Positions 5,381 to 54,989 of a stretch of DNA of 64,000 bases are shown one piece after another. The notes under the pieces were generated by a model that was given only the letters and a program-made list of their open reading frames with translations, had not been told where the DNA came from and searched no databases. Within the stretch, counting starts at the first letter, position 1; every line of letters begins with the position of its first letter. Position numbers and translations under genes: made by a program. The stretch covers positions 8,432,001-8,496,000 of the forward strand of contig NC_086108.1 of NCBI RefSeq assembly GCF_963921235.1. The letters are read 5' to 3'. The stretch comes from Mobula hypostoma (Eukaryota).

Positions 5381-5447
5381 CAGTCGTGTGCAAAAGTTTT
5401 AGGCACCCTGGCTGTGTATATGTGCCTAAGACTTTGGCACAGCACTG
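5381..5447. mobile_element. 67-bp Tc1/mariner-type MITE (copy at 21376-21442)
   Basis: Imperfect terminal inverted repeats of about 26 bp (CAGTCGTGTGCAAAAGTTTTAGGCAC / GTGCCTAAGACTTTGGCACAGCACTG) flanked by TA on both sides. Confidence 0.7.
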
Positions 5448-5869
5448 TATGTGGTAATATTGGTCACTTTGCAGCAGCAGTTCAGAGCAATACATAAAAA
5501 CATGATCAATTACAAAAGTGGACAATAATGGTTTCCGGCAGAATCAAAGATCCCATCCACCCCAGACATTCTCTCTTCTCCCCTCTCTCAGTGAGCAGAA
5601 GCTACAAAAGCCTGAAAGCACACACTACCAGGCTCAAAGACAGCTTCTATCTTCCTGTTATAAGACTGTTGAATGGTTTCCCAGGAGACAAGACGTACTC
5701 TTGACCTCAAAATGTCACACTGCATCTTCAGACTCAACCGCAGGATCACACAATGAGTCAGAAGCGTTAAAAAAAGCTAGGAATGTTACTAAGCAAAGAG
5801 ACAAAGAGGTTAGTTTTAATCTGCCATGGCATTGCCCATTTTAGAAACATAGAAACATAGAAAATAGGT

Positions 5870-19590: not shown

Positions 19591-19793
19591 ATATATAAAC
19601 AGATATATAAACAGATGTAGATTTGAAGGTTTGACAAGTTGCAATAATGGATTTTTCCGAGATGGTGTAAAAACAATATTGATGGATCAGATCCCATGAC
19701 AATCCAAGTGACATTTGTAAGGAACGTGTAAAAATAGTCACATGAGCCACTGGGCATCTAGTCACACCTACTGCCCCAGGAGGTGCAGTAGAA

Positions 19794-20953: not shown

Positions 20954-23900
20954 CAGTAGAGGCTCGACTCAGACTTCACACTAAAATGGGCAATGCCATG
21001 GCAGATTAAAACTAACCTCTGTCTCTTTGCTTAGTAACATTCCTAGTTTTGTTTAACGCTTCTGAGTCATTGTGTGATCCTGCGGTTGAGTCTGAAGATG
21101 CAGTGTGACATTTTGAGGTCAAGAGTACGTCTTGTCTCCTGGGAAACCATTCAACAGTCTTATAACAGGAAGATAGAAGCTGTCTTTGAGCCTGGTAGTG
21201 TGTGCTTTCAGGCTTTTGTAGCTTCTGCTCACTGAGAGAGGGGAGAAGAGAGAATGTCTGGGGTGGATGGGATCTTTGATTCTGCCGGAAACCATTATTG
21301 TCCACTTTTGTAATTGATCATGTTTTTATGTATTGCTCTGAACTGCTGCTGCAAAGTGACCAATATTACCACATACAGTGCTGTGCCAAAGTCTTAGGCA
21401 CATATACACAGCCAGGGTGCCTAAAACTTTTGCACACGACTGTATTTGTTAACGTGGAGCAGAGAGTGAGCTTGTAAATCTGACAGGAGCAAAGGATGTT
21501 GGGGATGGTGAGTGTGGAGTGTGGGACAGGAAGGGAGTGCCAGGGGCGAGGGATGGTGCAGGTACAGACACACCCAGCCCTGAGACACCAGGCAAGGTCA
21601 TTTCATTCCAAACAACTGGTTTATTGATCATTACAGAATGTCTCTCTGATGCTTCCTGCTCCCTCCCCTCCCTCCTCTCCACGATTCCCCTCTCCCTGTC
21701 CCCCTCCCACTCTCAGTCATCGTCCATAATAGAGACCCATATCAGAATCAGGTTTATCATATGTCATGAATTTGCTCTTTATTTTGCGGCAGCAGTACAG
21801 TGCGATACATAAAATTGCTGTAGTACGCTGCAGAAGTCTTGGGAACCCGGGCTATTGTAGACACCACTGTTGCTGACCATATCAAAGGTGGTGAAGAGTC
21901 AGCATAGAGGAGGGAGATGGAAAATCTGACTCAGTGGAGCCACAACTACAACCTCTCACTCAGTGTCAGCAAGCTGAAGGAGCCGATTATAGACTTTGGG
22001 AGAAGGAAACCAGAGGTCCCTAAGCCAGTCCTCACTGAAAGGTCAGAGCCGGGGTCGGGGGGGGGGCGGTATTAGCAACTTTAAATTCCTCAGTGTTATT
22101 ATTTCGGAGAACCCGTCCTGCTCCCAGCATGCAGGGGCAACGACAGAGAAAGCATGGCATCATCTCTCCTTCCTTAGGAGTTTGAAGAGATTCAGCAGAC
22201 TTCTATAGATGTGTAGTGGAGAATGTATTGACGGGCTGCATCATGGCCTGGTATGGACACACCAATGCCTTTGAATGAGAAATCCTACAAAAGCTAGTGA
22301 ATATGGTTCGGTCCATTATTGGTAAATGCCTCCCTACCACTGAGCACATCTACATGAAACACTGTCGTAGGAAAGCAGCATCCATCGTCAGAGATCCCCA
22401 ACACCCAGGCCATGCTCTCTTCTCACTGCTGTCATCAGGTAGAAGGTAGAGGAGCCTCAGGACCCACATCACCAGGTTCAGGAACATTTATTACCCCTCA
22501 ACCATCAGGCTCCTGAATCAAAGGGGACAACTTCACTCGCCCCATCACTGAAATGTTCCCACACCAATGGACTCACTTTCAAGGATTCTTCATCTCATGT
22601 TCTCAATATTTTTTTGCTTATTTACCCATTATTATTTCTTCTTTTTGAATTTGCACAGTTTGTTGCACTCTGATTAAACACCCAAATTGGGCGGTCTTTC
22701 ATTGACTCTGTTATAGTTATTATTCAATTGATTTATTAAGTATGCCTGCAAGAAAATCAACTTCAGGATTGTATATGGTCACATATAGGTGAGGAGAGCG
22801 GGAACCAGAATGGGGAATGGGAAAAAGGGAACAGATAAATTACTGGAAGTTAGAGAAATCTAATGTAAACAGTCTGTGCTTTGGAATAGAAAGGTTGATT
22901 GTTTTATAAACGGGGAAGAAAATAAAATTCTGAGGTGCAGATGGACTTGTGCAGGATTCCCTAAAGGCTAATTTGCAGGTTGAGTCAGTGGTGAGGACAG
23001 CAAATGTAATGTTAGCATTCATTTCAAGAGGAGTAGAATATAAAAGCAAGGATGTAATGCTGAGGTGTTACAATACATTGGTGAGGTCTCACTCAGTGTT
23101 CTGAGCAGGTTTGGGCCCCTTATCTGAGAAAGGATGTGCCAATATTTGGAGAGGGTTCAAAGGAGGTTCATGAAAATGATGCTGGGATTGAAAAGCTTGT
23201 CATGTGAGGAGTTTTTCATGGCTCTGGGTCTGTACTCACTGTAATTCAGAATAATAAGGGATGACATCACTGAAACCAATCAAATGTTGAAAGGCCTCAT
23301 TAGAGTGGATATGGAGAGGGTGGTTCCTATAGAGGGAGAGTCTAGGATCAGAGGGCACAGCCTCAAGATAGGAGAATGGAGATGAGGAGGAATTTCTTTA
23401 GCTCGAGGGTGGTGAATCTGTGGAATTCGTTGCCACAGGCAGGCTGTGGAGGTCAAGTAAATGAGTGCCTTCAAAGCAGAGGTTGATAGATCCTTGATAA
23501 GTCAGGGAGAGAAAAGTTATGGGGAGAAGGCAGGAGAACGGGTTTGAGAGGGAAATGGGTCAGCCATGATGAAATGGCAAAGTGGGCTCGAGGGACCGAA
23601 TGGCCCCATTCTGATCCGATGTCTAATGGTCTTAAATCCATGTTCATGCTGTGAGGTTGGAGGCTACCCAGATGGAATATGAAGTGTTGCTCCTTCACCC
23701 CAAGTGTGGCCTCCTCATAACAGTAGAGGAAGCCATGGACCGACATGTCAGAATGGGAAGAGGAAGCAGCCAAATCTTGTGAAGGGGTGCAGCGCCCTTT
23801 CTTTCTCTCAAGAATGCAGGGACGGCCATAGTGGACATCGCTGGAGCAGACTTGGGGTTAGGCCGCAAATTTGGGCCGGGGCACCCGGACCCGGGAGTGA

Positions 23901-25716: not shown

Positions 25717-25871
25717 TTACGCTGTGTTGATGAGGGTCTCTTTGTCCTCCCTGGAGCGCGTGCGATGGTAGGACACCACGTGGTCAGCCTTTGCCAGCTT
25801 GACGATGAAGTAGACGACGCCTCCGAGGAGTACCAGGATGCAGACGGCCAGGAGAACCACCATTGAGATCG
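25717..25871 (-). CDS. Terminal coding exon: transmembrane helix and short cytoplasmic tail (AISMVVLLAVCILVLLGGVVYFIVKLAKADHVVSYHRTRSREDKETLINTA*)
   Basis: Acceptor ccctcctctcttgccgcag in phase 1; hydrophobic run of about 23 residues followed by a basic residue; TAA at 25719-25717; tail resembles the HAI-2 DDKEQLV motif. Confidence 0.88.
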
Positions 25872-28945: not shown

Positions 28946-29020
28946 CTGACACGTGATGACGGAAGCCGGAGTGGTGCTGCCCGTCGTGCTTGCCCCCGTC
29001 TTCGCTCTTTTCCCAGTTAC
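28946..29020 (-). CDS. Candidate juxtamembrane linker exon (GNWEKSEDGGKHDGQHHSGFRHHVS)
   Basis: 75 nt, phase 1-1; good donor CAG|GTAAGC; GC/CpG-rich non-repeat patch. The acceptor (ttttgaatgatag) is weak, so the 5' boundary is uncertain. Confidence 0.5.
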
Positions 29021-30532: not shown

Positions 30533-30902
30533 GTGAGTGAAGTTATCCACACTGGTTCAGGAGCCTGATGGTTGTGGGGTAATAACTGTTCCTGAACCTG
30601 GTGGTGTGGGACCTGAGGCTCATTGTGGTGAGTGAAGTTATCCACACTGGTTCAGGAGCCTGATGGTTGTGGGGTAATAACTGTTCCTGAACCTGGTGGT
30701 GTGAGACCTGAGGCTCATTGTGCTGAGTGAAGTTATCCACACTGGTTCAGGAGCCTGATGGTTGTGGGGTAATAACTGTTCCTGAACCTGGTGGTGTGAG
30801 ACCTGAGGCTCATTGTGCTGAGTGAAGTTACCCACACTGGTTCAGGAGCCTGATGGTTGTGGGGTAATAACTGTTCCTGAACCTGGTGGTGTGGGACCTG
30901 AG
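30533..30902. repeat. 95-bp tandem repeat (about 4 copies) derived from a Rex1-type LINE 3' fragment
   Basis: Unit gtgagtgaagttatccacactggttcaggagcctgatgg...gaggctcattgtg repeats; ORF offsets are 95 bp. Confidence 0.88.
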
Positions 30903-33339
30903 GGCTCCAGGACGCCAAGGCCTACACGGCCCACACACAGACAAGATGTGAGTACACCCCCAGATTACGAACTGCCTCATCAAGTTGCAACCCTTGCACG
31001 AACATCCAAGTTCATTCAGAGCCGTAGCCTGTGCGGCACCTTCTGTTCAGCTTGCCACTCAGGGAGACCCCACGTGCTGTGGGACAGGAGGGGGTGTGGA
31101 GAAGCACTCAGTGTAATCTGGGATTTACGCCAATCAGGGCCAGGTCTGAGCGAGGACTGAGAGGATGAGAGGCAGCTTGATAGAGGTGTACGGAGGGAGC
31201 AGCCAGGGCCTCGGGGGCCTTTCTCCCAGGGCACCAAGGGCAAATGCCAGAAGGACATCTTGTTGAGGCGAATGGATGTAAGTTTAGGGGCGATGTCAGA
31301 GACAGGTGTTTATATACGTGTGTATACAAACTCTGTAGTGGGTGCAATGAACACACTGCCAGGGCTGGTGGTAGAAAAAGATACATTAAGGACAACCTGC
31401 AGGTCACCCTTGGGCAGCCGGTACACATCACAAGTCCTGGATATGCGACCACTGACGCCAGGCAGACAATCTCTGAAGAGTACTGATAATGGCGGGGTCA
31501 CCCATGTTGTAAAGACACTGCCCAGAGGAAGGAAATGGCAAACCACTTCTGTGGAAGTTTACCACACAATCATGGTCACATGGAAAGACCACGACCGCCC
31601 ACGTCATACAACACAGCACGTAACCAACGAACGAGGTTGATACTGTACACAAACAGGTCTTTAAACCCAACTTGTCCATGACGACCAAGGCTAGTATTAC
31701 TTGCCCACGTTTCCCCCTCAACCTCTCCTATTCATGTACAAGCTAAACGTTCTTACAATCAGAATCAGGTGTAGTATCACCAGCGTATGCCCTGAAATTT
31801 GCTGTCTTTGCAGCAGCAGTACAAAGCAATACATAGTATTAGAGGAAGAAATGTGAAAATATATATATATTCACGTAGTTAAAGTAAATAAGTAGTGCAA
31901 AAATAGAAATAAAAAAAGTAGTGAGGTCGTGTTCATGGGTTGAATATCCAGACGTCGTTGGGGGAGCGGAGAAGCTATTCCTTCAGGCTCCGCACATCAA
32001 AGTTGCTGGTGAACGCAGCAGGCCAGGCAGCATCTCTAGGAAGAGGTAGAGTCAACGTTTCAGGCCGAGACCCTTCGTTCAGGCTCCTGTAGCTCCTCTC
32101 TGAGAAGCAGGCATGTCCTGGGTGGTGAGGGTCTGGGAAGGTGTAGTATGGTCAGAACGATAGATTCACGGGTGTGCTCTACACCTCCTTGGAGGTACAA
32201 CACCCCTGGGATTCCCTGGTCTCCCACATCTCAGTATTAACCATATAACAATTACAGCACAGAAACAGGCCATCCCGGCCCTTCTAGTCCGTGCCGAATT
32301 CTTACTCTCACCTAGTCCCACCGACCTGCACTCAGCCCATAACCCTCCATTCCTTTCCTGTCCGTATATCTATCCAATTTAACTTTAAACGACAACATCG
32401 AACTTGCCTCAACCACTTCTGCTGGAAGCTCGTTCCACACAGCTACAACTCTCTGAGTAAAGAAGTTCCCCCTCATGTTACCCCTAAACTTTTGCCCTTT
32501 AACTCTCAACTCATGTCCTCTTGTTTGAATCTCCCCCATTCTCCATGGAAAAAGCCTATCCACGTCAACTCTATCAATCCCCCTCATAATTTTAAACACC
32601 TCTATCAAGTCCCCCCTCAACCTTCTATGCTCCAAAGAATAAAGACCTAACTTGTTCAACTTTTCTCTGTAACTTAGGAGATGAAACCCAGGCAACCTTT
32701 GAGAACCTTTTATTAGGAGCAGTGGAACCAACTCACCGTCTCACAGTGTACTCAGTGCAGAGGGCTGCTCTTGCCCCACCCACAGTCAAACACACAGATT
32801 TGTCACACGTACATCGAAGCATACAGTGAAATGTGCTGTTTGTGTCAGTGACCAACGCTGGCCGAAGATGTGCTGGGGGGCAACCCACAAGTGTTGGCAC
32901 ACCTCCGGCACCAAAATAGCAAACCTACAACTCACTAACCCTGACCCGTGCCACCCAGCCATCACCCAATTTAATCCTAGCCTAATCACAGGGCAATTTA
33001 CAATGATCAGTAAACCTACCTACCGACCGGTAAGTCTTTGCACTGTGGGAGGTCACTGGGGCACACAGAGGAAACCCATGCCGTGACAGGGAGAACGTAC
33101 CAACTCTTTATAGACAGTAGTGGGAATTGAACCTGGATGGCTGGCATTGTGAAGTCTTACGCTAACCCCTACGTTACCATGCTAGCATTAGCCATTCTGC
33201 CAATGCAGACGGACCATTTTTACCTCCAGGAATAGCAACCCTAATTTCACTAATTTATTTTAGACAGTGATGTCCCTCATTTCTGGAATTTACTCTCGTA
33301 AATCTCTGCTGCACCTTCAAGCTTCAAATAATATATATT

Positions 33340-33830: not shown

Positions 33831-35933
33831 AAATTGACTGAAGATTGAGATCACTGGGGCGGGTGCGGAGAGGAAGTGAGCATTCAGCGCAGTGTACCGG
33901 CCCTCAGTCGCTGCTGCTGGAGACGGTGTCTGAATGTGGCAGTCCTTCTCTCTCTCTTGCTGCTCCCAAGGGAAGGTCCCTGTGTTCAAGTGATCTCTCT
34001 CTCCCTTTATGCCGTCGGCAGATGATGCCGGAACAAGGTTTAATCGACACGGATTGTGGATTAGGACCCTAATTCGGGTTTATAATGTGTTCTAATTGTA
34101 GTCTTAGTTGCTCTTTATTGGTTCTACTTTTGGGCGATTTTGAATCGGGGTGGCCTGCAGATAATCAGGGTGAACTGTACCAGAATATGCCTTTTGATTT
34201 TATGTTGTAGATTCTGCATTCTCACTCTGTTTTTTTTCTGTTGCCATCTGCACAATTTGTTTTGTGTGGGGGGGGGGTTTGATGTTCGATGTTTTCCTTT
34301 GAACGGGTTGGTTCCAGGGTGTTTCTGTGTTTCGTGGCTGTCTGTGGGAAGATGAATCTCAGGGTGGTATATTACATACACTCTTTGATAAATAAATGTA
34401 CTTTGAATCTTTGAACTGGACATACAGATCCCACAGGACTGAAACTAACCATCCATGGACCCCGGCTCGGGAAGGCAGCCATAATACTGCGGATGCCACA
34501 GCGGTAGCACAACGCTGCTACAGCTTGATGGCGGGGGGTGGGGGGGGGGCTCAGACAGGCCTCTAAGGAATTTGTACGTTTTCCCTGTGACCGGGTGGGT
34601 TTCTTCTGGGTACTTTGGTGTCCTCCCGCAGTCGGTTAGTAGGTTAATTTGTCATTGTAAACTGTCCCATGATTAGGCCAGGATTAAATCCGGGGGCTGC
34701 TGGGTGGTGTGTCTCAAAGAACCAGAAGGGCTGGTTCCACACTGTATTTCAATAAATAAAACATCTTGGACTTCAGCCACCCAGATCCTGCTCTTCGTCT
34801 GTCTGTTCTGCACCTTATATCATTGTAAGATTATATCAAGTTTATAACTAATTTGATGAATTAATAGTGTGTGTGTATATATATATATATATAGACATTC
34901 TCTCCGTACATATCACGAGTTTAACGCTGACAAGTGCTGGGAGGCAGTGGAAAAAAAGAAAAGCTTTTCCACTATATACGCAGAGCGCTCTCGCAGGAAA
35001 GCAGCATCCATCATCAAGGACCCCCACCACCTAGGCCCTGCTTTTTTCTCGCTGCTGCCATTAGGAAGGAGGTACAGGAGCCTCAGGACTCGCACCACCA
35101 GGTTCTGGAACAGTTATTACCCTCAGCCATCAGGCTCTTGAACCAAAGGGGACAACTTCACTCACCCCATCAGTGAAAGGTTCCCACAACCAATAGACTC
35201 ACTTTCAGGGACTCTTCATCTCATGTTCTTGATATTTATTGCTTATTTATTTATTATTATTTCTTCTTTTTGTATCTGTACAGCTTGTTGTGTTTTGCAC
35301 TCTGTCCATCTTGTTGGGGCCCGTCTTTGATTAATTCTGCTGCGTTTCTTGTCTTTACTGTGTGAATTCCCACAAGAAAATGAATCTCAGGGTTGTATAT
35401 GGTGGCAAAGATGTCCTATGATAATAAATTTACTTTGAATGTGACAAGAAGAGAATTAACGAAGACGGAAACGCTGGAGGAACTCAGCAGGTCAGGCACC
35501 AGCTCTGGAGGGGAATAAACAGACAAGATTTTGGGCCGAGACACCCTCTCAAGACTAGAAAAGAGAGCAGCAGTCAGAAGGTGAAGGAACACAAGCTGGC
35601 AGGTGATAGATAAGACCAGGTGAGGGGAAAAGTAGGTGGGGAGAGGGGATGAAGAAAGAAGCTGGGAGCTGATAGGTGGAAAAGGTAGAAGGCTGAAGAA
35701 AGAGGCATCTGTTAGGAAGAGAGAGCAGACCATAGGAAAAAGAGAAGGAGTGGGGACACCAGGGAGAGGTATTCTGCAGAACACTGTGGGCATAATATCT
35801 TGGCACCCGTATGTGTGACGAAACTTGTGGGCTGCCCTTAGCATACGCTTGGTTGTTAACACAAGCAATGCATTTCACCGCCTGTTTCGACGTAGATCGG
35901 CTGTGGCCAGGTCTGGCTTCACCGTGTACTAAC

Positions 35934-36104
35934 CTGTCTTCCCCGAGCAAGCAGCCAAGCAGCTCTCCTCGGAGACGAAGTTGTTCTTGTTCCCTCCACA
36001 GCCACCGTAGATGAAGGACAGGCAGGGCTGCCGCGCGGAGTCGTAGTACCATCGCGGGAAGGCAGTGCAGCGTTTCCCCGTCACGGCCGGAGCATAGCGG
36101 TTCT
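35934..36104 (-). CDS. Aberrant Kunitz exon D ([57 protein letters not shown])
   Basis: 171 nt, open, phase 1-1, donor G|GTTAGT. First Cys changed to Arg, Cys-Arg at the reactive loop changed to Arg-Cys, and the acceptor is shortened. May be skipped. Confidence 0.65.
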
Positions 36105-36109
36105 CTGCA

Positions 36110-38627
36110 GGCTCAGTCCCCACCCAAACACACTCACCCCCACCCACCCGCTCCTTTACCAACGTCATTCCAACAATCTCAGCAAATCACGTTCATCTGC
36201 TTGTCCCAGGAAGCCAAGCCCCCACCAGCAACCTCCCCGCCCGCGCCTGCACCCACACTAATATCGTACCTTTATCCTCAACGGATAGCTTCCTTTCCGG
36301 TGGTTCGGAGACAAGTGCTGCGGAACGAAAAAAAAGATGTGAAGTTACACGCACAAAGTGCTGGGGGGGGGGACTCAGCAGGTCAGGCAGCATCTATAGA
36401 AATGAATAAACAGTCAACGTTTTGGGCCAAGACCCTTCTTCAGGACTGAGAAGGAAGAGGGGAGACTCCAGAGTAAACAGGTGGGGAAGGGGGGAGGGGA
36501 AGGAGGACGGCTGGAAGGTGACGAGTGAAGCCAGGTTGGTAGGAGAGGTGAAGGGCTGGAGAGGAAGGAATCTGATGGGAGAGGAGAGTGGACAATAGGA
36601 GAAAGGGAAGGGAGAAGGGACCCAGGGGGAGGTGATAGGCAGGTGAGAAGAGGTAAGAGGTCGGAGTGAGGAATAGAGGAAGGAATTGGTTCACCGAAAG
36701 TAGAGATCAATATTTATGTCATCAGGTTGGAGGCTACCCAGACGGAATATAAAGTGTTGCTCTTCCACCCTGAGCGCGGCCTCTTCTTGGCACAAGAGGA
36801 GGCCACGGGCTGACACATTAGAATGGGAATGGGAATGGGAATGAAAAAGATTTGGCCACCAGGAAGTCAAGCTTTTGGTGAATGGAGCAGAGGTGCTTGA
36901 TGACGCGGTCCCCCAATTTACCTGTATCTATTTTCAGGGACAATGGAGAACACCTGGAGCTAAGTGTTCTGTGGAATTTCACCCACCGATCAGTGTGTGA
37001 CACCGAACCATGCCGAGACAGGTCAGAGGAGCTTTCACACAGCCATCCATAGAGGAAACTGAAGTTTCAGAGGGAACGCCAGAGGGTGAGACCCAGGGCA
37101 AAGAGAGACACAAGAGGCTGAAATGGAGGTGGTAACAGGACGGGCAAGGACATGAAGGGGAGTTGGAAGGTGAGAGTAGGTCAAGTGAGCTAGGGCTTTT
37201 CTCTCTGGAGTGAAGGTGGTTGAGCGGTGACTCGATAGAGGTGTACACAATGATACAAAGCATCAATCATGTGGACAGCCAGAGACTTTTTCCCCAGAAC
37301 AGAAATGGTCAATATGAGGGGGCATAAACTTAAGGATGGAGCATCGGACCAGAAAGCCCTACAAAGGACAGTGAGACTGATCGAGAAGATCATACGGGTC
37401 ACCCTGCCCTCCATCAGGGACATTTATCAGGAGCACTGCACACGCAGGGCTCTTAGTATTATCAAGGATCCCACCCACCCATCCAGCATCCTCTTTGACT
37501 TTCTACCATCAGGCAGGAGACTCCGATGCACAAAAACAAGAATGGACAGGATGGGAAACAGATTCTTCCCGCAGGCCGTTAGGCTTCTGAACTCCCTGCC
37601 ACATCGCATTCGAAGTGTCTCTGGTTAATCTGTTCCGTACCCTACGATATTGTTTCATTTATTCCCTTTACTTTGTGTATTTATGCATAATCGATCATTA
37701 GATTTTATCCTTACTTTCCTAAGTTACTGTGTGTTATGTGTACTACTGTGCTTTACACCCTGGTCTGGAGAAACATCGTCTCATTTGATGGTATGCATGT
37801 ATATAGTTAAATGACAATAAAGTTGACCTCATTCCTCTGAGATGCAACACTGAGCGTCATAGGAAGTCATTCCTGCCTGTGGCCATCAAACTTTACAACT
37901 CCTCCCTTGGAGAGTCAGACACCCTGAGCCAATAGGCTGGTCCTGGATTTATTTCATAATTTACAGGCATAATTTACATATTACTGTTTAACTATTTATG
38001 GTTTTATTACTATTTATTATTTATGGTGCAACTGTAACAAAAACCAATTTCCCCCTGGGATCAATAAAGTATGACTATGACTAAGTAATTTTTTTTGTTT
38101 TACAGGGGTGGCAGATACATTAGGGACATTTAAGAGACTTTTAGATAGGCCCATGGATGATAGAAAAATGGAGGGCTATGTGGGAGGGTTACGTTGGTGT
38201 GGTCATCAACATAAAAGACTGATGTAAAAATCCCAAGCAGTGGACACTTAACATTGTCCTGCTCATCTGAGCCCCCAGGTGCAGTCAATAGTGTGTAACT
38301 GTCACGAACTGGGAAAAGGCAGAGAGAAATGTTTTGTTAAATCAGTTTGTTTAGAACCTCAGCCACTCCTGTAATACACAGCTCATGAGTTGTTCATCCT
38401 CCACCCCCACCCCCCTGTTCACACCTGTCCTGGGGGGGGGGGGAGGTGGCGTGCCTGATTCTGATTGTCGAAAGCAGCTTCCGTTGTGATTGGTCAGTTT
38501 AGAAGCTGCAACTGCTTTCCCCATTCGATAACCACCCGTGTACGGTTTCAAATACCCTGGGTACATAAAATAGCACATGGAAGGGGCTTGCTCTCTTCTT
38601 GCTTTGTTTAAGGCAGGAATGCACACG
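36110..38627. repeat. Intragenic duplicated block; direct copy of about 42612-44866
   Basis: Identical ORF translations at 36818/43309, 36979/43470 and 37427/43918 (offset about 6.49 kb); includes the linker exon copy. Confidence 0.9.
38252..38308 (-). pseudogene. Duplicated copy of the 57-nt linker exon with a dead splice donor (pseudo-exon)
   Basis: Exon body matches 44497-44553, but the donor reads G|TTAAGT instead of G|GTAAGT (plus strand A at 38251 versus C at 44496). Confidence 0.75.
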
Positions 38628-39379
38628 ACGATCAGGAATGTCTGGTCGAATTTTTACAGTTTGTAAATAAATGATTAATATACCTATTCAAAGCCAGTGC
38701 AGTTCTTCTCTCCCTTGCCAGGCCCACCAAACCTTATTCCACATTACAATACCTCCTCCCTGCTTGCCTCCCTGTCACCTCATTTGATCCCCCCCCCCGT
38801 TAACTCCATTTGCTGCCCCCCACCCCTCCACGGCCACCCCATTCTACTTTCTCTTCTTTCCTGGCCTGGGTGGGTTAGATTTCCTGGGATCAGATTTCAG
38901 GTCAGTACTGGTTTAACCAGAATGTCACACATGCTGAACAAGACCACAGGATTTTAAAGAAACAGACCCAACCCAAACAAAGCCAAGAATTTGTTCATTA
39001 CGAAAGCAACAGAACACCGAAGTAAGGAATCAGTGCTTCAATTCTACAGGCCACTGGTGAGACCACATCTCGTGTGCTGTGTATAGTCCTGCCCTTATTT
39101 TCAAATGGCAGAGCAGACCTGATGGCCTGAATGGCCCGCCAGCTCCTACGTCTTGTGGTCTCAATTCAGAATGTTAGCACAGCTCTGGCGGCGGAGTGGG
39201 GATACCTCTCTAACAAAGGAGGTGTAAGGCACTCCTTCCCTCCACTAGCCTACACGTCACCCTTGGGCAAAGTGTAGCACCTATTAGCCCCCCCAATCCC
39301 CCCAGATCATGAGGTGTGGGTCTTCAGGCTTCTGCAACTCAGAGGGAACAACGGTCAGCAGTTTAAATGGCTCGGCATG

Positions 39380-40398
39380 GACTAGATGGGCTGAATGGCC
39401 TGATTCTGCTCCTATGTCTGATGGCCTTTTTCTGTGTGTGTGAACGTATACACCTGCGATGCTGCTGTACCTGCACCTCTGGGTGGTGGGGTGGAGATAC
39501 GTCTCTACCAAAGGAGCTGTGAGGCGCTCCTGTCCTCCACTAGCCAGCGGGTCACCCTTGGGCAAGGTGTAGCACCTGCTTAGCCCCCCCACCACCCCGA
39601 TCAGGGTCACATGAAGCCACGGGATCAGGTGGTGGATGGTCCTATGAGCAGCCGGTGCAGATCACAAGTCCTGGTTATGTGACCACTGACACCAGGCAGA
39701 CAATCTCTGAAGAGTATTGATAAAGGCTGGGGTCACCCGTCTTGTAAAGACACTGCCCAGAAAAAGGCAATGGCAAACCACTTCTGTAGAAAAATTTGCC
39801 AAGAGCAATTGTTGCCAAAGAGCATGATTGCCCATGTCATATGACTCGGCACATAATAATGATGTCATAGACATGGCACATAATGATGATGACGGTGTAC
39901 ACCTCACTGTTCTTGGACACGTGACGATGATCAGAATCAGGTTTAATATCACCAACATGTGTTGTGAAATTTGTTGTTTTGCAGTTTGCAAAACATAAAA
40001 TATTACAAATTACAATAATATATATTAAAAAATGAAAAAAGAGAGAACAAAAGTAGTGGGGTAGTGTTCAGGGGTGTACTAACCTGGCACCCCCCAGCAA
40101 GCGGTCAAGCAATTCCCCTTGGATTCGAAGTTGTTCTTGTTCCCTCCACAGCCACCGTAGATGAAGGGCAGGCAGTCTTGCACCTCGGGGTCGTAGTACC
40201 ATCGCGGGAAAGCAGCACGGCAATGCCCCGTCATGGCCGGATCATAGCAGTACGCTGCGGGCACAGTCAGAAGGCTCAGTCCCCACCCAAACACACTCGG
40301 CCCCACCCACCCGCTCCTTTACCAACGTCATTCCAACAATCTCAGCAAATCACATTCATCTGCTCGTCCCAGGAAGCCAAGCCCCCACCAGCAACCTG
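39380..40398. repeat. Intragenic duplicated block containing Kunitz C; direct copy of about 41719-42716 (Kunitz B)
   Basis: Near-identical intron sequence at offset about 2.34 kb (ORFs 39662 and 42000). Confidence 0.9.
40084..40254 (-). CDS. Kunitz domain exon C ([57 protein letters not shown]), P1=Arg
   Basis: 171 nt, phase 1-1; acceptor ttctgactgtgcccgcag, donor G|GTTAGT; all six cysteines present. Confidence 0.88.
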
Positions 40399-42422
40399 CT
40401 GAGACCACATCTCGTGTGCTGTGTATAGCACTGCCCTTATTTTCAAATGGCAGAGCAGATCTGATGGCCTGAATGGCCTGCCAGCTCCTACATCTTGTGG
40501 TCTCATTTCAGAATGTTAGCACAGCTCTGCCGGCGGGGTGAGGATACCTCTCTACCAAAGGAGGTGTAAGGCACTCCTTCCCTCCACTAGCCTACACGTC
40601 ACCCTTGGGCAAAGTGTAGCACCTATTAGCCCCCCTAATCCCCCCAGATCATGTGCAACTCAGAGAGGGAACAACGGTCGGCAGTTTAAATGGCTGGCAT
40701 GGTCTAGATGGGCTGAAGGGCCTGATCCTGTGCTCTGCTCCTCAGTGACTCTAACCCCTAAAACCACCCCTACTAACCTATATAAAAAAGACCACAACAT
40801 TGACGGACTCCATAGTCCAGCGCCATCCTAACCGGGAGATGTCCCACACACGGGCTTTGGGAGTTTGGGAAGGAGCGGGGATGGGATTGAAATACGAGAT
40901 CCCAAGAAGTCTTGACAAGATGGATGGGGGAAGAGGACATTCCCTCTTGTGGGAGAATCTAGAACTGGGGTCAATGTGTAAATGGAATCATGCATTTACA
41001 TATCATTATTTAACTATTTATGGTTCTATTACTATTTATTATTTATGGTGCAACTGTAATGAAAACCAATTTCCCCCGGGATCAATAAAGTATGACTATG
41101 ACTATGCACTTTGAACAGAAGAGGTAATGTTGCCTTTCCCCCGGAGGGCTGAATCTTTGGAATTCTCTTCAACAAACAATGCTGCAGATAGAGTATTTGA
41201 ATATTTCTGAGGCAGAACTGGATGAATAAGTGAGAGGTTGCCGAGGCAAAAACGTGGAGCTGTGGTTGCAACTAGATCAGACCAGATCTCACATTACATG
41301 ACAGGAAACCAAGAACCGAACACTGCATACTAATTTGCATATATTTTAATAACAAGAATGAAGAGGTTTCACGTATTTTGAATAATTTACGTACAACTCA
41401 GGCCCAGATAGAGTAGCCATTGAGAGGGTTTTTCCTACAATGGGGTGGGGGAGGGGAGAGACTTGGACCAGAGGACACAGCCTCAAAATAGAGTGATGTC
41501 CCTTCAGAACAGAGATGAGGAGGAATTTCGTTAGCTAAAGGGAGGTGAATCTGTGGAATTCATTGCCACAGGCGGCTGTGGAGGCTAAGTCATTGGGTCT
41601 ATTTAAAGCGGAGGTTGATAGGCTCTTGATTAGTCAGGGTGTCAGAGGTTACGGGGAGAAGGCAGGAGGATGGGGTTGAGAGGGATAATAAATCAGCCAT
41701 GACAGAATGGTGGGACAGACTAGATGGGCTGAATGGCCTGATTCTGCTCCTATGTCTGATGGCCTTTTTCTGTGTGTGTGAACGTATACACCTGCGATGC
41801 TGCTGTACCTGTACCTCTGGGTGGTGGGGTGGAGATACGTCTCTACCAAAGGAGCTGTGAGGCGCTCCTGTTCTCCACTAGCCAGCGGGTCACCCTTGGG
41901 CAAGGTGTAGCACCTGCTTAGCCCCCCCACCACCCCGATCAGGGTCACATGAAGCCACGGGATCAGGTGGTGGATGGTCCTATGAGCAGCTGGTGCAGAT
42001 CACAAGTCCTGGTTATGTGACCACTGACACCAGGCAGACAATCTCTGAAGAGTATTGATAAAGGCTGGGGTCACCCGTCTTGTAAAGACACTGCCCAGAA
42101 AAAGGCAATGGCAAACCACTTCTGTAGAAAAATTTGCCAAGAGCAATTGTTGCCAAAGAGCATGATTGCCCATGTCATATGACTCGGCACATAATAATGA
42201 TGTCATAGACATGGCACATAATGATGATGACGGTGTACACCTCACTGTTCTTGGACACGTGACGATGATCAGAATCAGGTTTAATATCACCGACATGTGT
42301 TGTGAAATTTGTTGTTTTGCGGTTTGCAAAACATAAAATATTACAAATTACAATAATATATATTAAAAAATGAAAAAAAGAGAGAACAAAAGTAGAGTGG
42401 TAGTGTTCAGGGGTGTACTAAC

Positions 42423-42593
42423 CTATCTCCCACGAGCAAGCGACCACGCAATCCTCCTCCGATTCGAAGTTGTTCTTGTTCCCTCCACAGCCACCATAGG
42501 TGAAGGTCATGCAGGCCCCCCGCGCGGGTTCGTAGTACCATCGCTGGAAAGCAGCGCGGCATCTCCCCGTCATGGCAGAAGCATAGCAGTACG
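42423..42593 (-). CDS. Kunitz domain exon B ([57 protein letters not shown]), P1=Arg
   Basis: 171 nt, phase 1-1; acceptor ttctgactgtgcctacag, donor G|GTTAGT; all six cysteines present. Confidence 0.9.
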
Positions 42594-44496
42594 CTGTAGG
42601 CACAGTCAGAAGGCTCAGTCCCCACCCACCCGCTCCTTTATCAACGTCATTCCAACAATCTCAGCAAATCACATTCATCTGCTCGTCCCAGGAAGCCAAG
42701 CCGCCACCAGCAACCTCCCCGCCCACGCCTGCACCCACACTAATATCGTACCTTTATTCTCCGCAACGGATAGGTCTCTTGGCTGTGGTTCGGAAAGGAG
42801 TGCTGCGGAACGAAAAAAAAGATGTGAAGTTACACGCACAAAGTGCTGGAGCGTGGGGGGGGGACTCAGCAGGTCAGGCAGCATCTATAGAAATGAATAA
42901 ACAGTCAACGTTTTGGGCCAAGACCCTTCTTCAGGACTAAGAAGGAAGAGGGGAGACTCCAGAGTAAACAGGTGGGGAAGGGGGGAGGGGAAGGAGGACG
43001 GCTGGAAGGTGACGAGTGAAGCCAGGTTGGTAGGAGAGGTGAAGGGCTGGAGAGGAAGGAATCTGATGGGAGAGGAGAGTGGACAATAGGAGAAAGGGAA
43101 GGGAGAAGGGACCCAGGGGGAGGTGATAGGCAGGTGAGAAGAGGTAAGAGGTCGGAGTGAGGAATAGAGGAAGGAATTGGTTCACCGAAAGTAGAGATCA
43201 ATATTTATGTCATCAGGTTGGAGGCTACCCAGACGGAATATAAAGTGTTGCTCTTCCACCCTGAGCGCGGCCTCTTCTTGGCACAAGAGGAGGCCACGGG
43301 CTGACACATTAGAATGGGAATGGGAATGGGAATGAAAAAGATTTGGCCACCAGGAAGTCAAGCTTTTGGTGAATGGAGCAGAGGTGCTTGATGACGCGGT
43401 CCCCCAATTTACCTGTATCTATTTTCAGGGACAATGGAGAACACCTGGAGCTAAGTGTTCTGTGGAATTTCACCCACCGATCAGTGTGTGACACCGAACC
43501 ATGCCGAGACAGGTCAGAGGAGCTTTCACACAGCCATCCATAGAGGAAACTGAAGTTTCAGAGGGAACGCCAGAGGGTGAGACCCAGGGCAAAGAGAGAC
43601 ACAAGAGGCTGAAATGGAGGTGGTAACAGGACGGGCAAGGACATGAAGGGGAGTTGGAAGGTGAGAGTAGGTCAAGTGAGCTAGGGCTTTTCTCTCTGGA
43701 GTGAAGGTGGTTGAGCGGTGACTCGATAGAGGTGTACACAATGATACAAAGCATCAATCATGTGGACAGCCAGAGACTTTTTCCCCAGAACAGAAATGGT
43801 CAATATGAGGGGGCATAAACTTAAGGATGGAGCATCGGACCAGAAAGCCCTACAAAGGACAGTGAGACTGATCGAGAAGATCATACGGGTCACCCTGCCC
43901 TCCATCGGGGACATTTATCAGGAGCACTGCACACGCAGGGCTCTTAGTATTATCAAGGATCCCACCCACCCATCCAGCATCCTCTTTGACTTTCTACCAT
44001 CAGGCAGGAGACTCCGATGCACAAAAACAAGAATGGACAGGATGGGAAACAGATTCTTCCCGCAGGCCGTTAGGCTTCTGAACTCCCTGCCACATCGCAT
44101 TCGAAGTGTCTCTGGTTAATCTGTTCCGTACCCTACGATATTGTTTCATTTATTCCCTTTACTTTGTGTATTTATGCATAATCGATCATTAGATTTTATC
44201 CTTACTTTCCTAAGTTACTGTGTGTTATGTGTACTACTGTGCTTTACACCCTGGTCTGGAGAAACATCGTCTCATTTGATGGTATGCATGTATATAGTTA
44301 AATGACAATAAAGTTGATCTGAAGTACAAGTAATTTTTTTTGTTTTACAGGGGTGGCAGATACATTAGGGACATTTAAGAGACTTTTAGATAGGCCCATG
44401 GATGATAGAAAAATGGAGGGCTATGTGGGAGGGTTACGTTGGTGTGGTCATCAACATAAAAGACTGATGTAAAAATCCCAAGCAGTGGACACTTAC

Positions 44497-44553
44497 CATT
44501 GTCCTGCTCATCTGAGCCCCCAGGTGCAGTCAATAGTGTGTAACTGTCACGAA
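44497..44553 (-). CDS. Short linker exon after LDLa (VRDSYTLLTAPGGSDEQDN)
   Basis: 57 nt, phase 1-1; strong acceptor gtttctctctgccttttcccag and donor G|GTAAGT; open frame. Confidence 0.75.
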
Positions 44554-45286
44554 CTGGGAAAAGGCAGAGAGAAACGTCTTGTTAAATCAGTTTGTTTAGA
44601 ACCTCAGCCACTCCTGTAATACACAGCTCATGAGTTGTTCATCCTCCACCCCCACCCCCCTGTTCACACCTGTCCTGTGGGGGGAGGTGGCGTGCCTGAT
44701 TCTGATTGTCGAAAGCAGCTTCCGTTGTGATTGGTCAGTTTAGAAGCTGCAGCTATTTCCCCATTGGATAACCACCCGTGTACGGTTTCAGATACCCTGG
44801 GTACATAAAATAGCACATGGAAGGGGCTTGCTCTCTTCTTGCTTTGTTTAAGGCAAGAATGCACACAATGATTGTGAAATTTGTTGTTTTGTGGTTTGCA
44901 AAACATAAAATACTACAAATTACAATTGTACACATTAAAAAATGAAAAAAAAAGAGAACAAAAGCAGTGGGGAAGTGTTCATGGGCTCATTGTCCATTCA
45001 GAAATCTGATGGCAGAGGGGAAGAAGCTGAGCGTGTCTTCAGGCTCCTGTTCCTCCTCTGGGATGGCAGCAATGAGAAGAGGGCGTGTCCTGGGTGGTGG
45101 AGGCCCTTAATGACAGATGCCACCATCTTGTGGTATCATCTTTTGAAGATGTCCTCGATGTCTAAGTGAACTTATCCAGAGATTGAGGGTAAACCAGGAG
45201 GAGAGGAGGGGCTTCCTGTCCACACACACTCCAGAACAACTCAATGGGTGCTATGACACAGGCAACTCTGCACCCCCATCACTTAC

Positions 45287-45412
45287 CCGCATCACAGTAC
45301 TGGAGGTCTGATTTATCAAGGCAATGTACCTCCCCATCACAAATCTGGTCAGAGGGGACACAGCAGCCGTCACGGCAGTGGAATTCATCAGCCGAACACT
45401 GCCTCGAACATT
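45287..45412 (-). CDS. LDL-receptor class A domain exon (ECSRQCSADEFHCRDGCCVPSDQICDGEVHCLDKSDLQYCDA)
   Basis: 126 nt, phase 1-1; acceptor ctgtctgttgcag, donor G|GTAAGT; cysteine spacing with the GCC motif resembles the HAI-1 LDLa domain. Confidence 0.9.
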
Positions 45413-48021: not shown

Positions 48022-48197
48022 GGCCTCAGACCGTCCCACGCCCACTCCTGGGCCCTCAGACCGCCCCACGCCCGCTCCTGGCCCCTCAGACCGCCCCACG
48101 CCCGCTCCTGGCCCCTCAGACCGCCCCACGCCCGCTCCTGGCCCCTCAGACCGCCCCACGCCCGCTCCTGGCCCCTCAGACCGCCCCACGCCCGCTC
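48022..48197. repeat. GC-rich 30-bp minisatellite (gcccctcagaccgccccacgcccgctcctg), about 6 copies
   Basis: Direct tandem units visible in the sequence. Confidence 0.9.
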
Positions 48198-48199
48198 AG

Positions 48200-51100
48200 T
48201 AACAGCTGTAAAGATGTGGTCTACAAACTACAACGGGAGAGAAAATGCATGCCAAAAGGGCAATGTTACAATAGTCATGGGGGAATTCAATATGCAGGTG
48301 GCTTGGGAAAATCAGGTCGGTGCTGGACTCCAAGAGGAGGAGTTTCTGGAATGCCAATGAGATGGCTTTTTAGAGCAGCTCATGGTTCAGCCCACTAGGG
48401 GAGCACCAATTGTGGATCGGGTGCTTTGCAATGATCCGGAATTGATTAGAGAGCTTATGGTAAAATAACCATTAGGGGACAAGTGATCATAGTAGGATCG
48501 AATTCACTCTGAAATTTGAGGAGTAGCTAAGGTCAGATGTATCAGTATTACAGTGGAATAAAGGGAATTACAGAGGCATGAGAGAAGAGTTGGCCAGAAT
48601 TGATTGGAAAAGAACACTGGTAGGGATGATGGCAGAGCAGCAGTGGCTGGAATTTCTGGAAACAATTCAGAAGGCACAAGGTATCTACATCCTAAATAGG
48701 GATTCCTTATTCTAAAGGAAAGATGACAAGATTGTTAACAAGAGAAGCCAAAGAGAGGGCATATAATAGAGCAAAAATTAGTGGGAAGTTAGAGGATTGG
48801 GAAGTTTTTAAAAACCAACAGAAGACAACTAAAAAAGTTATTAAAAAGGTAAAGATGGAAAACAAAAGCAAGCTACCCAATAATATTAAAGAACATACCA
48901 AAAGTTTCTTCAGATACATAAAGTGCACGGAGAGGCAAGAGTGTATATCAGACGCCTGGAAAACAACGCTGGAGAGGTAGTAATGGGGAAAAAGGAAATG
49001 GTGGATAAACTGAATAAGTATTTTGCATCAATCTTCACTGTGGAAGACACTAGCAGTATGGCAGAAGTTCCAGGTGTCGGGGGCATGAAGTGTGTGAAGT
49101 TACCATAACTACAGAGAAAGATCTTGGGAAACTGAAAGGTCTGAAGCCTGGACCAGATGGTGTTAACCCTAGTTTTCAGAAAGCAATGGGAGGCGTTAGT
49201 AATGATGTTTCAAGAATCACTAGATCCTGAAATGGTTTTTGAAGACTGGAAAATTGTGAATGTCACTCCACTCTTCAAGAAGGGAGAAAGGTAGAAGAAA
49301 GGAAACTATAGGCCAGTTAGTCTGACCTCAGTTGCCGATGTTGTAGTTGATAATTAAGGATGAGGTCTCAGGGTACTTAGAGGTCCATGATTAAAAAGGC
49401 CACAGTCAGCATGGTTTCCTCAAGGGAAAATCTTAGCTGACAAATCTGTTGGAATTCTTTGAAGAAATGACAAGCAGGAGAATTGGTTGGTGTTGTGTAC
49501 TTAGATTTTCAGAAGGCCTTTGACAAGTTGCCACACATGAGGCTGCTTAACTAGGTAAGAGCCCACTGTGTTACAGGAAAGACTCTAGCATTTATAAAGC
49601 AGTGACTGATCAGCAGGAGGCAAAGAGTGGGAATAAAAGCAGCCTTTTCTGGTTGGCTACCGGTGTCTAGTGGTGGTCCACAGGGGTCTGTATTGAGACA
49701 ATTCTTTTCAGGTTAGATTAGATTAGATTAGATTAGATTCAACTTTATTGTCATTGTGCAGAGTACAGATACAAAGCCAAAGAAATGCAGTTAGCGTCTG
49801 ACCAGAAACGCAAATAGTGTTATTTACAAAATAACTGCCAATAAAAAGTGCTACAGTACACAAATATAAAAGTGCTGAGACAGTACAATATGGGTGCAAT
49901 ACTACTTAGTGCTGCGATGTGAGGTTCAACAGGGTCACAGCCTCAGGGAAGAAGCTCTTCCTGTGCCTGCTGGTGCGGGAGCGGAGGCTCCTGTAGCGCC
50001 TACCGGATGTGAGGAGAGTAAAAAGTCCATGGTTAGGGTGAGATGCATCCTTGATAATGCTTTTCGCCCTGCCCAGGCAGCGTTTATGGTAGATGTTCTC
50101 AATGGTGGGCAATTGGGTGCCGATAATCCGCTGGGCAGTTTTCACCACACGCTGGAGTGCTTTGCGGTCCGATACGGGACAATTGCCATACCACACTGAG
50201 ATGCAGTTGGTGAGTATGCTCTCAATGGTACAGCGGTAAAAGTCCATCAGTATCCTGGGACAGAGGTGAGCTTTCTTGACGCTCCGCAGGAAATAAAGAC
50301 GCTGTTGTGCCTTTTTGATCAGGATGGAGGAGTTCAGAGACCAGGTGAGATCCTTGGAAATGTGGACACCAAGGAATTTGAAGCTTGATACACGCTCCAC
50401 TACAGTTCCGTTGATGTAGATGGGGACGTGAGCTTGACTCCTGGCATGCCTGAAGTCCACAATGATCTCCTTGGTCTTCTGGGTGTTAAGGGCCAGATTG
50501 TTGTCAACACACCACGTGGCCAGGTGTTGGACCTCGTCCCTGTAGGCCATCTCGTCATCTCCTCTGATCAGACCAGCCACCGTGGTGTCATCTGCGAACT
50601 TGGTTATGGAGTTAGAACCATGTACAGGAACGCAGTCATAGGTGAAAAGGGAGTACAGAAGAGGGCTCAGCACACAGCCTTGAGGCACGCCGGTGTTCAG
50701 GGTGAGAGTGGAGGAGGAGAGGTTGTCTAACTTAATGATTGGGGTCTGTTAGTCAGAAAGTCCAAGGTCCAATTGCAGAGGGATGAGCTGATACCAAGCT
50801 GGCGAAGTCCGGCGATCGGCTTGGAGGGGATCACAGTATTGAATGCTGAACTGAAGTCAATGAACAGCATTCTGACGTAAGAGTTGGGGCTGTCCAGGTG
50901 GGTCAGGGCAGAGTGAAGTGCCATGGGGATGGCGTCCTCTGTTGACCTGTTGGTGCGATAGGCAAATTGATGGGGGTCCAGGGTAGTGAGCAGACAGGAT
51001 TTCAGATGTGATAGAACCAGTCTCTCAAAGCACTTTGCAATGATGGGGGTGAGTGCAACTGGATGGAAATCATTCAGGTCCGTGGCAGTGGAATGCTTCA

Positions 51101-54030: not shown

Positions 54031-54084
54031 CTTTCACACTCAACACACTTCTGCTTACCACTGGCACCAAGTTGCTTAACGGTT
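54031..54084 (-). CDS. Short linker exon (EPLSNLVPVVSRSVLSVK)
   Basis: 54 nt, phase 1-1, open frame; pyrimidine-rich acceptor cctttctctctttcag and consensus donor AAG|GTAAGT; lies between Kunitz A and LDLa. Confidence 0.7.
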
Positions 54085-54818: not shown

Positions 54819-54989
54819 CTGTGACTTTGCTGCAGGCCTTCTGGCAATCCGCTTCACTCTCATAGTTGTTCGGGTTGGGCAGGCAGCCTCCGTAAATGAA
54901 CTCCTGGCACACCTGTTCCGTGGTGTTGAAATACCACCGAGGAAACCAGGCACGGCACGGGCCCGCCTTCGAGGGACTTGTGCAATCCA
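54819..54989 (-). CDS. Kunitz domain exon A (DCTSPSKAGPCRAWFPRWYFNTTEQVCQEFIYGGCLPNPNNYESEADCQKACSKVT), P1=Arg
   Basis: 171 nt, phase 1-1; acceptor ttatttttcag, donor G|GTTTGT; six Kunitz cysteines and FxYGGC motif. Confidence 0.92.

Follow-up and report, generated by a model that had tools for sequence, protein, structure and literature searches.

Diverged copies of a Kunitz exon within near-identical introns of a SPINT2-like gene in the devil ray Mobula hypostoma

Results

A SPINT2-like gene on the minus strand of the window

The window analyzed here is a 64,000 nt stretch of the Mobula hypostoma genome (NCBI RefSeq assembly GCF_963921235.1, contig NC_086108.1, positions 8,432,001 to 8,496,000), and all coordinates below are positions within it. 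Its minus strand carries a SPINT2-like gene, with a predicted MANSC-Kunitz-LDLa-Kunitz-Kunitz-transmembrane (TM) product, in which a Kunitz exon is present in three copies, designated B, C and D. The translations of the window's exons match exactly the RefSeq M. hypostoma 'kunitz-type protease inhibitor 2' isoforms X1 (P0148, 485 aa) and X2 (P0040, 428 aa; XP_062919664.1 and XP_062919665.1). Exon B served as query in the protein search that, with subsequent cluster look-ups, gave these models together with M. birostris isoforms X1 to X4. The signal peptide and MANSC domain are encoded by exon 1, which lies 15.4 kb past the window end (126/126 identical to the model).

Every exon from the first Kunitz domain (K1) to the stalk is in phase 1-1. 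Splice joints, given as the two joined positions separated by a slash, come from contigs of four sequencing runs (X5, X10, X11 and X12) of the same organism, produced by another study, which we read as RNA because their contigs are spliced. K1 (54819-54989, 171 nt, P1 Arg) was located by tblastn with P0006/P0148, its splice sites and its translation, and the spacer exon PLSNLVPVVSRSVLSVK (54031-54084, 54 nt) by tblastn, AG/GT boundaries and translation. The LDLa exon (45287-45412, 126 nt) was identified by tblastn, Pfam PF00057, its acceptor and joint 44553/45287 (X10, X11, X12). The 57 nt 'VRDSY' exon (44497-44553; joints 42802/44497 and 44553/45287) precedes the second Kunitz domain (K2) in sharks and skates. 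It is followed by linker1, LLSEPQPRDLSVAENK (42752-42802, 51 nt; joints 42593/42752 in X11 and X12, 42802/44497 in X10-X12), and by two canonical six-cysteine Kunitz exons with a P1 Arg: B (42423-42593), which is optional, being in RefSeq X1 and not in X2, and which is joined to C in 4/4 runs (40254/42423), and C (40084-40254), which is in every isoform seen (joints 36317/40084 and 40254/42423 in 4/4 runs).

Between C and linker2 sits VRDSY' (38252-38308), an unused copy of the VRDSY exon that is skipped by joint 36317/40084. Linker2 itself, LVSEPPERKLSVEDK (36270-36317, 48 nt), has joints 29017(+3)/36267(+3) and 36317/40084 in 4/4 runs. The third Kunitz exon, D (35934-36104), likely a pseudo-exon in the ancestral position of the last Kunitz domain (K3), has no joint at its ends among the joints listed. 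The stalk exon NWEKSEDGGKHDGQHHSGFRHHVS (28946-29020, 75 nt; joints 25871/28946 and 29017(+3)/36267(+3) in 4/4 runs) leads to the last exon (25717-25871), located by tblastn, translation and an RNA joint. This encodes ISMVVLLAVCILVLLGGVVYFIV, a 27-residue cytoplasmic tail and the stop codon, and provides a single C-terminal membrane span as read from the sequence.

An earlier interpretation of the window made from its letters (the sequence-only reading) had placed the gene in the HAI family, and this assignment is borne out. Pfam detects MANEC (PF07502, 52.9 bits, P0148 residues 28-111), three Kunitz stretches (PF00014, 173 bits over the three) and one LDLa (PF00057, 28.8 bits against a cut-off of 24.1, residues 206-241), to which the C-terminal membrane span is added. 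The six-cysteine spacing C-8-C-15-C-7-C-12-C-3-C is present in K1, B and C, all of which have a P1 Arg. No PKD-like internal domain, such as HAI-1 has between its MANSC and K1 domains, was matched by Pfam on P0148 at E <= 0.01, and the MANEC stretch lies ~17 residues from Cys1 of K1 (residue 129). The best PDB relative is HAI-1 (5h7v, E 3e-53), with K1-LDLa-B aligned to residues 220-395. By its Kunitz, MANSC, LDLa and membrane-span features the protein would belong to the HAI/SPINT family of transmembrane Kunitz inhibitors; orthology to mammalian SPINT2 is suggested by NCBI's automatic name. Because the six-cysteine pattern and P1 Arg are kept, B and C are each predicted, from family knowledge, to inhibit trypsin-like serine proteases, and the P1 Arg in K1, B and C is compatible with inhibition of matriptase, HGFA, hepsin or prostasin-type proteases.

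Three Kunitz exons in duplicated blocks

B, C and D are the paralogous 171 nt, phase 1-1 exons that the sequence-only reading described, at the coordinates it gave. Each is preceded by AG and followed by GTTAGT, and their Pfam Kunitz_BPTI scores are 69.1 (B), 72.0 (C) and 63.8 bits (D). The near-identical duplicated blocks of that reading were reproduced by self-blastn of 30-50 kb, which paired 35924-37829 with 42413-44320 (96.0% identity), 38083-38632 with 44328-44872 (97.1%) and 39380-40397 with 41718-42716 (93.7%), but these averages conceal a mosaic in which the two long intron tracts are 99.0-99.5% identical and the exons ~81%. When the whole 3.48-Gb assembly was searched with 42300-42700, the Kunitz exon was matched at B, C and D only. 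The other matches among the 40 scored were one local 114-bp repeat and 36 to an interspersed repeat in the first 115 query bases.

The 114-bp interspersed repeat is found at 39962-40074, 42300-42413 and 44872-44985, that is, directly downstream of C, directly downstream of B, and on the upstream side of the B module. The third copy is ~89% identical to the other two, and at least 36 further copies with 70-88% identity lie on other contigs. It may have served as a substrate for unequal recombination between modules. The D module also contains a ~250-bp insertion at 37829-38083 that is absent from the B module. As 37972-38091 within it is 91.7% identical to 40994-41112, the insertion is probably a further repeat element.

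Splicing of B and C, and decay of exon D

The joints listed here for the four runs are canonical GT..AG (CT..AC on the plus strand). Those joining the TM exon to the stalk, the stalk to linker2 with D skipped, linker2 to C, and C to B were listed in 4/4 runs, B to linker1 in 2/4, and linker1 to VRDSY and VRDSY to LDLa in 3/4. The same 16-letter end of linker1 occurs behind both B and C (as a loose end behind 40256), showing that a form without B exists, and this inclusion and skipping of B agrees with RefSeq X1 (B + C) and X2 (C only). The sequence-only reading had noted that symmetric phases would permit copies to be skipped, and for B they are put to this use. It had also proposed a Kunitz-LDLa-Kunitz-Kunitz(-Kunitz)-TM protein, of which the form with three Kunitz domains is expressed; the fourth, D, is unused in the joints listed. 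No joint at either end of D was present among the 15 best-supported of 464 joints in the four runs, the sole listed contig over D is unspliced (depth 3.1), and D is absent from 6/6 Mobula RefSeq isoforms. On the evidence of the RNA contigs and RefSeq, the protein that is made carries three Kunitz domains, or two, rather than four or more.

VRDSY' and the VRDSY exon agree at 57/57 positions, and their acceptor tracts are almost alike. At the donor, VRDSY' has G/TTAAGT where the used exon has G/GTAAGT, one of very few differences in a tract of 99.5% identity. Two joints from run X5, 38308/45287 and 42802 to 38252, could belong to either of the identical 57-nt exons and were left out of account as ambiguously placed.

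Exon D reads NRYAPAVTGKRCTAF..., NRY...GKRCTAF, with five cysteines left. The codon for Cys1 is CGC (Arg), and that for Cys2 is also CGC, followed by TGC at the P1 Arg site, so that 'CR' has become 'RC'; P1' Ala is replaced by Thr. At the acceptor, 13 bp are deleted and pyrimidines occupy 9/22 positions versus 14/22 in B and C. Despite its Pfam match, D does not have the full set of three disulfides (Cys1-Cys6, Cys2-Cys4 and Cys3-Cys5), nor the P1 residue right after Cys2, that characterize Kunitz/BPTI domains.

To read codon changes in relatives, DNA contigs of four other organisms (organisms B to E, with M. hypostoma as organism A) were aligned on 35700-36340. In organism B, the closest relative, the D contig differs at 7 positions in 275 nt and has Arg at both Cys codons as well as the acceptor deletion. 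It also carries an extra 13-nt frame-breaking deletion inside the exon; the decay of D has gone on in that lineage. A second organism-B contig starts exactly at the start of paralogue homology and carries the 13-bp acceptor segment; it is a copy of exon B or exon C aligned on D. Contigs of organisms C and D (~10% diverged) share exon D's unique downstream flank and have a canonical K3 exon, with codons TGC, TGC, CGT and GCT at Cys1, Cys2, P1 Arg and P1' Ala and the 13 bp retained. Organism E contigs cover the conserved core only. Since the lesions are common to organisms A and B and are not found in C and D, they arose after the split from organisms C and D and before the split of A and B. A search of public proteins for exon D orthologues with its 83-aa open frame gave 2 unrelated Kunitz proteins.

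Exon D is thus likely a dead pseudo-exon and likely the original copy. Because D is unused in the joints listed and the isoforms, has two cysteines out of register and is frameshifted in a relative, there is no support for a product with four Kunitz domains or more. Several points count on the other side. D keeps an open frame and AG/GT boundaries, and its C-terminal half is identical to stingray K3. Runs X5 and X10-X12 are not on record as RNA and are taken as such on a tool's guess, supported by the spliced contigs; the joints seen are the best-supported 15 of 464, and the contigs (Logan) drop rare forms; a low-level or tissue-specific isoform with D could still be made.

The alternative to which these points lead is that D is a functional alternative exon, encoding a non-canonical five-cysteine Kunitz-like module in tissues or stages outside those sampled and giving K1-LDLa-B-C-D. 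Its phase 1-1, intact frame and splice dinucleotides, 63.8-bit Kunitz match, and the fact that the joint evidence covers the best 15 of 464 speak for it. Nonetheless, the loss of Cys1 and displacement of Cys2 leave an odd number of cysteines, the acceptor tract is 13 bp shorter, the close relative's orthologue is frameshifted by the 13-nt deletion, neither end of D is joined in the joints listed, and none of the 6 Mobula RefSeq isoforms includes it. We regard a functional D as quite unlikely.

The same data bear on whether the duplicated blocks are an artefact of assembly, through a false duplication or wrongly joined haplotypes. Assemblers can misplace sequence of this kind, with tracts of 1.4-1.7 kb that are 99.5-100% identical. 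Against this, the exons differ at 32-33/171 positions, RNA contigs from another study contain B-C and C-linker2 joints, and the proteins of a second species contain both B and C. A contig from an RNA-like run matches D together with its unique downstream intron without a single difference (35608-36004), and DNA contigs of relatives span D together with the flank peculiar to it. On the strength of the exon differences, RNA contigs, second species and relatives' contigs we reject false duplication, to which we assign next to no probability.

Ancestral domain count and origin of the copies

To place the copies, we compared orthologue models from seven sharks, two skates (one a Logan-derived protein), a sawfish, an electric ray and two amphibians. 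Three six-cysteine Kunitz domains are present in 13/13 of these, in the order K1-LDLa-VRDSY-K2-linker-K3-stalk-TM. Same-named models of other vertebrates have 2, 3 or 6 Kunitz domains, the 6 coming from one unverified sturgeon model. The sequence-only reading had measured the ray against mammals, which proves to be the wrong comparison, as all 13 models already have two Kunitz domains after the LDLa. The K1-LDLa-B-C chain has the same number as each of them, an outcome which that reading had itself named as telling against its proposal and which in part does so. The exon amplification is nonetheless real and lineage-specific: the ray has duplicated K3-type copies where the relatives' baseline is K1-LDLa-K2-K3.

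A K2-type domain is absent from all isoforms seen in Mobula (6), Hypanus (3) and Hemitrygon (2). A K2-specific profile hidden Markov model run over the six-frame translation of the window matched K1, B, C and D only (E 1e-22 to 1e-26; next match E ~1), and after this search and tblastn with skate and shark proteins, which added nothing to the four, a K2 relic in the window was rejected as a candidate. In a tree of 51 protein domains, built on 57 columns only and with many forks open, none of B, C and D falls in the chondrichthyan K2 clade (99/99). B and C form a sister pair (95/84), B pairing with M. birostris B (100/99) and C with M. birostris C (99/78), and D falls among K3-type domains beside the last Kunitz of stingrays. 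D also retains the stingray K3 C-terminus VSEESCLAACSGKT and the position adjoining the stalk exon. B, C and D thus all appear to be K3-type copies, and the tree, the isoforms and the K2 profile search together indicate that K2 was lost and K3 multiplied. Weighing against the loss is its source, which is annotated isoforms and one window, not relatives' genomic DNA.

End branches in the tree are much longer in M. hypostoma than in M. birostris (B 0.11 versus 0.0015; C 0.19 versus 0.019). Linker1 differs at 5/17 residues between M. hypostoma (P0148) and M. birostris (P0006), and linker2 is identical. Isoform X1 of the stingray Hemitrygon akajei (P0152) resembles Mobula in that its linker is followed by two adjacent K3-type domains in tandem; unlike Mobula B and C, its two copies differ at 1/57 residues. 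The Hemitrygon pair may stem from a separate recent duplication or from an old one since homogenised, or may be an assembly artefact.

Diverged exons inside near-identical introns

In a comparison of B with C, the upstream intron is identical at 119/123 positions, the exon at 139/171, and the downstream intron, which includes the 114-bp repeat, at 691/698 (99.0%; 41724-42422 versus 39386-40083). For the B and D modules, the VRDSY-to-linker intron is identical at 1680/1688 positions (99.5%; 42803-44496 versus 36318-38252), likely a recent gene-conversion or re-duplication tract, whereas the linker exons match at 38/48 positions with a 3-bp indel and the Kunitz exons at 138/171. The intron ends on either side of the linker exons show no difference over 30 nt and 12 nt, and the B and D linker-to-Kunitz introns differ by ~6 mismatches and by 20-bp and 13-bp indels in a three-way alignment. 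The three Kunitz exons are equidistant, with 32, 33 and 32 differences in 171 positions (139/171, 138/171 and 139/171 identical).

Between B and C, the exon has 32/171 differences versus 11/821 in its flanks (Fisher p 3e-17), and the concentration of 32 of the 43 mismatches in the exon was reached in 0/200,000 permutations. Synonymous sites follow the same pattern, with ~6/35 differing versus 11/821 in the flanks (p 3e-5). Exon divergence is 0.17-0.20 at synonymous sites (dS) and ~0.23 at nonsynonymous sites (dN), giving dN/dS of 1.1-1.4. CpG hypermutability was rejected as the cause of the exon divergence, as it explains only 2/32, 7/33 and 6/32 of the differences, and between B and C transversions are as common as transitions (19 versus 13).

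The sequence-only reading called the expansion recent. This is misleading: B and C are each paired with an orthologue in M. birostris, and the exon copies therefore predate the split of the two Mobula species, in keeping with their dS. The long intron tract, in contrast, has 8/1688 differences, fewer than the 7/275 between orthologous DNA of organisms A and B (Fisher p 0.002). These comparisons are best read as homogenisation of the introns after speciation, through gene conversion or re-copying, which the used exons escaped.

Not everything fits this reading. The tract downstream of B and C (7/698 versus 7/275) does not differ significantly from orthologous DNA (p 0.08), and some short flanks are 3-5% diverged (4/123, 10/319 and 6/130), so that not all of the intron is younger than the species split. 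The neutral divergence of organisms A and B is itself taken from one 275-nt contig and a rough 31-mer share estimate of 2.5-3.4%. Finally, the confinement of divergence to exons, the dN/dS values and the B-C transversions would also fit accelerated evolution of the exons.

Exon-specific accelerated evolution has been described for venom-gland inhibitor and phospholipase genes. Applied here, it would mean that the modules were duplicated very recently and that the exons then diverged adaptively, with no gene conversion. The sharp exon boundaries of the divergence, dN/dS above, the small share of CpG transitions and the frequency of transversions are as this predicts, and the two Mobula proteins differ at 6/57 residues in B and 9/57 in C versus 2/57 in K1. 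It does not account for a synonymous divergence far above that of the flanking introns, for copies older than the species split, or for a long intron tract that is less diverged than orthologous DNA. We therefore consider very recent duplication with acceleration alone improbable, though acceleration may contribute to the divergence of exons whose surrounding introns were homogenised.

Other elements in the window

Retroelement remains are present at two sites on the minus strand. A 280-aa open frame at 49909-50748, in the K1-LDLa intron, matches RVT_1 (47 bits), and a 468-aa open frame at 18283-19686 contains a YIDD-type motif and has no Pfam match at E <= 0.001. Tandem repeats occur at 30534-30903 (95-bp unit, 3.9 copies, 98% matches) and 48024-48197 (30-bp unit, 5.8 copies, 97%). 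Several long open frames within the first 25 kb (588-1010, 5014-5463, 21369-21809 and neighbours) have almost identical counterparts on both strands, which shows that one or two transposable elements are present in multiple copies downstream of the gene.

Discussion

Taken together, our results make it probable that B and C are spliced K3-type copies, that D, which is skipped in the sampled RNA, is a dead pseudo-exon, that K2 has been lost, and that the introns were secondarily homogenised. The history we propose starts from an ancestral cartilaginous-fish gene with the order K1-LDLa-K2-linker-K3. The K2 exon would have been lost in the lineage leading to stingrays and devil rays. Within the devil-ray lineage, the K3 exon would then have been copied, partly with its linker and the preceding 57-nt exon, and the upstream copies B and C would have taken over. 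The copy in the original position, D, adjoining the stalk, would have lost Cys1, the register of Cys2, the P1 Arg and part of its acceptor tract, with these lesions arising before the split of two close relatives. The resulting protein would be K1-LDLa-B-C-TM, or K1-LDLa-C-TM when B is skipped. After speciation, non-allelic gene conversion or re-copying would have homogenised the introns. The used exons (linker1/linker2 and B/C/D) are still ~19-21% apart, presumably because homogenising them was selected against.

A further step is more tentative, and we would sooner doubt it than assert it. The membrane-proximal Kunitz domain may have been replaced by two copies of itself, with selection against an ongoing, intron-erasing conversion keeping B and C apart and possibly driving them apart, such that the two address different protease targets and B is optional. 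If B and C have been retargeted in this way, the locus would offer a natural experiment on how exon turnover can give an HAI-type inhibitor new targets.

On the history proposed above, a multidomain inhibitor would have kept its domain count while swapping domains: K2 was lost, the last domain was copied, and the original is caught in mid-decay. The locus also carries a caution for annotation, in that counts of Kunitz-like exons in DNA overstate the protein, and mammalian HAI-1 and HAI-2 provide the wrong baseline. The transcripts were already in RefSeq, and the mechanisms (exon duplication, exon skipping and gene conversion) are familiar; no paper on this locus was found within the collection searched.

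Among its closest counterparts, the ray gene shares the MANSC-K1-LDLa-Kunitz-Kunitz-stalk-TM architecture with the SPINT2-like models from sharks, skates, sawfish, an electric ray and amphibians, and the VRDSY, linker, stalk and TM exons are homologous. These models differ in their distal domains, which are the old paralogues K2 and K3 with a linker between them, whereas in Mobula young K3 copies stand side by side. In Mobula, moreover, K2 is missing and the exon in the K3 position is decayed.

Among mammalian inhibitors, HAI-1 and HAI-2 have two Kunitz domains each according to PMC7215454, as the sequence-only reading stated. HAI-1/SPINT1 (human, 5h7v; PMC7215454) has in common with the ray gene a MANSC domain, a Kunitz-LDLa-Kunitz core, a single C-terminal TM segment and a P1 Arg. 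It has one Kunitz domain after the LDLa and the ray gene two, and teleost HAI-1-like models carry PF18911 and PF22352, whereas Pfam found no PKD-like domain in the ray protein P0148. Isoforms A and B of mammalian HAI-2/SPINT2 offer a parallel for the optional exon, B in the ray, since there too a whole Kunitz exon is skipped to give two domains or one. In the domain list given in PMC7215454, however, the domain skipped in HAI-2 is the first Kunitz, and the protein has no MANSC or LDLa.

For the contrast between exons and introns, the closest likeness is with the L/M opsin genes of primates, in which introns have been homogenised by gene conversion, exons have diverged, and exon trees follow orthology (PMC3213168). 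The ray locus resembles them in that exon divergence exceeds intron divergence (19% in the exons versus 0.5-1% in the long intron tracts), at synonymous sites as well, and in that the exon copies group by orthology in the 57-column protein tree. It differs in scale: in the opsins two genes convert, whereas in the ray the converting units would be exon modules inside one gene, making the locus a compact intragenic case of homogenised introns around diverged exons.

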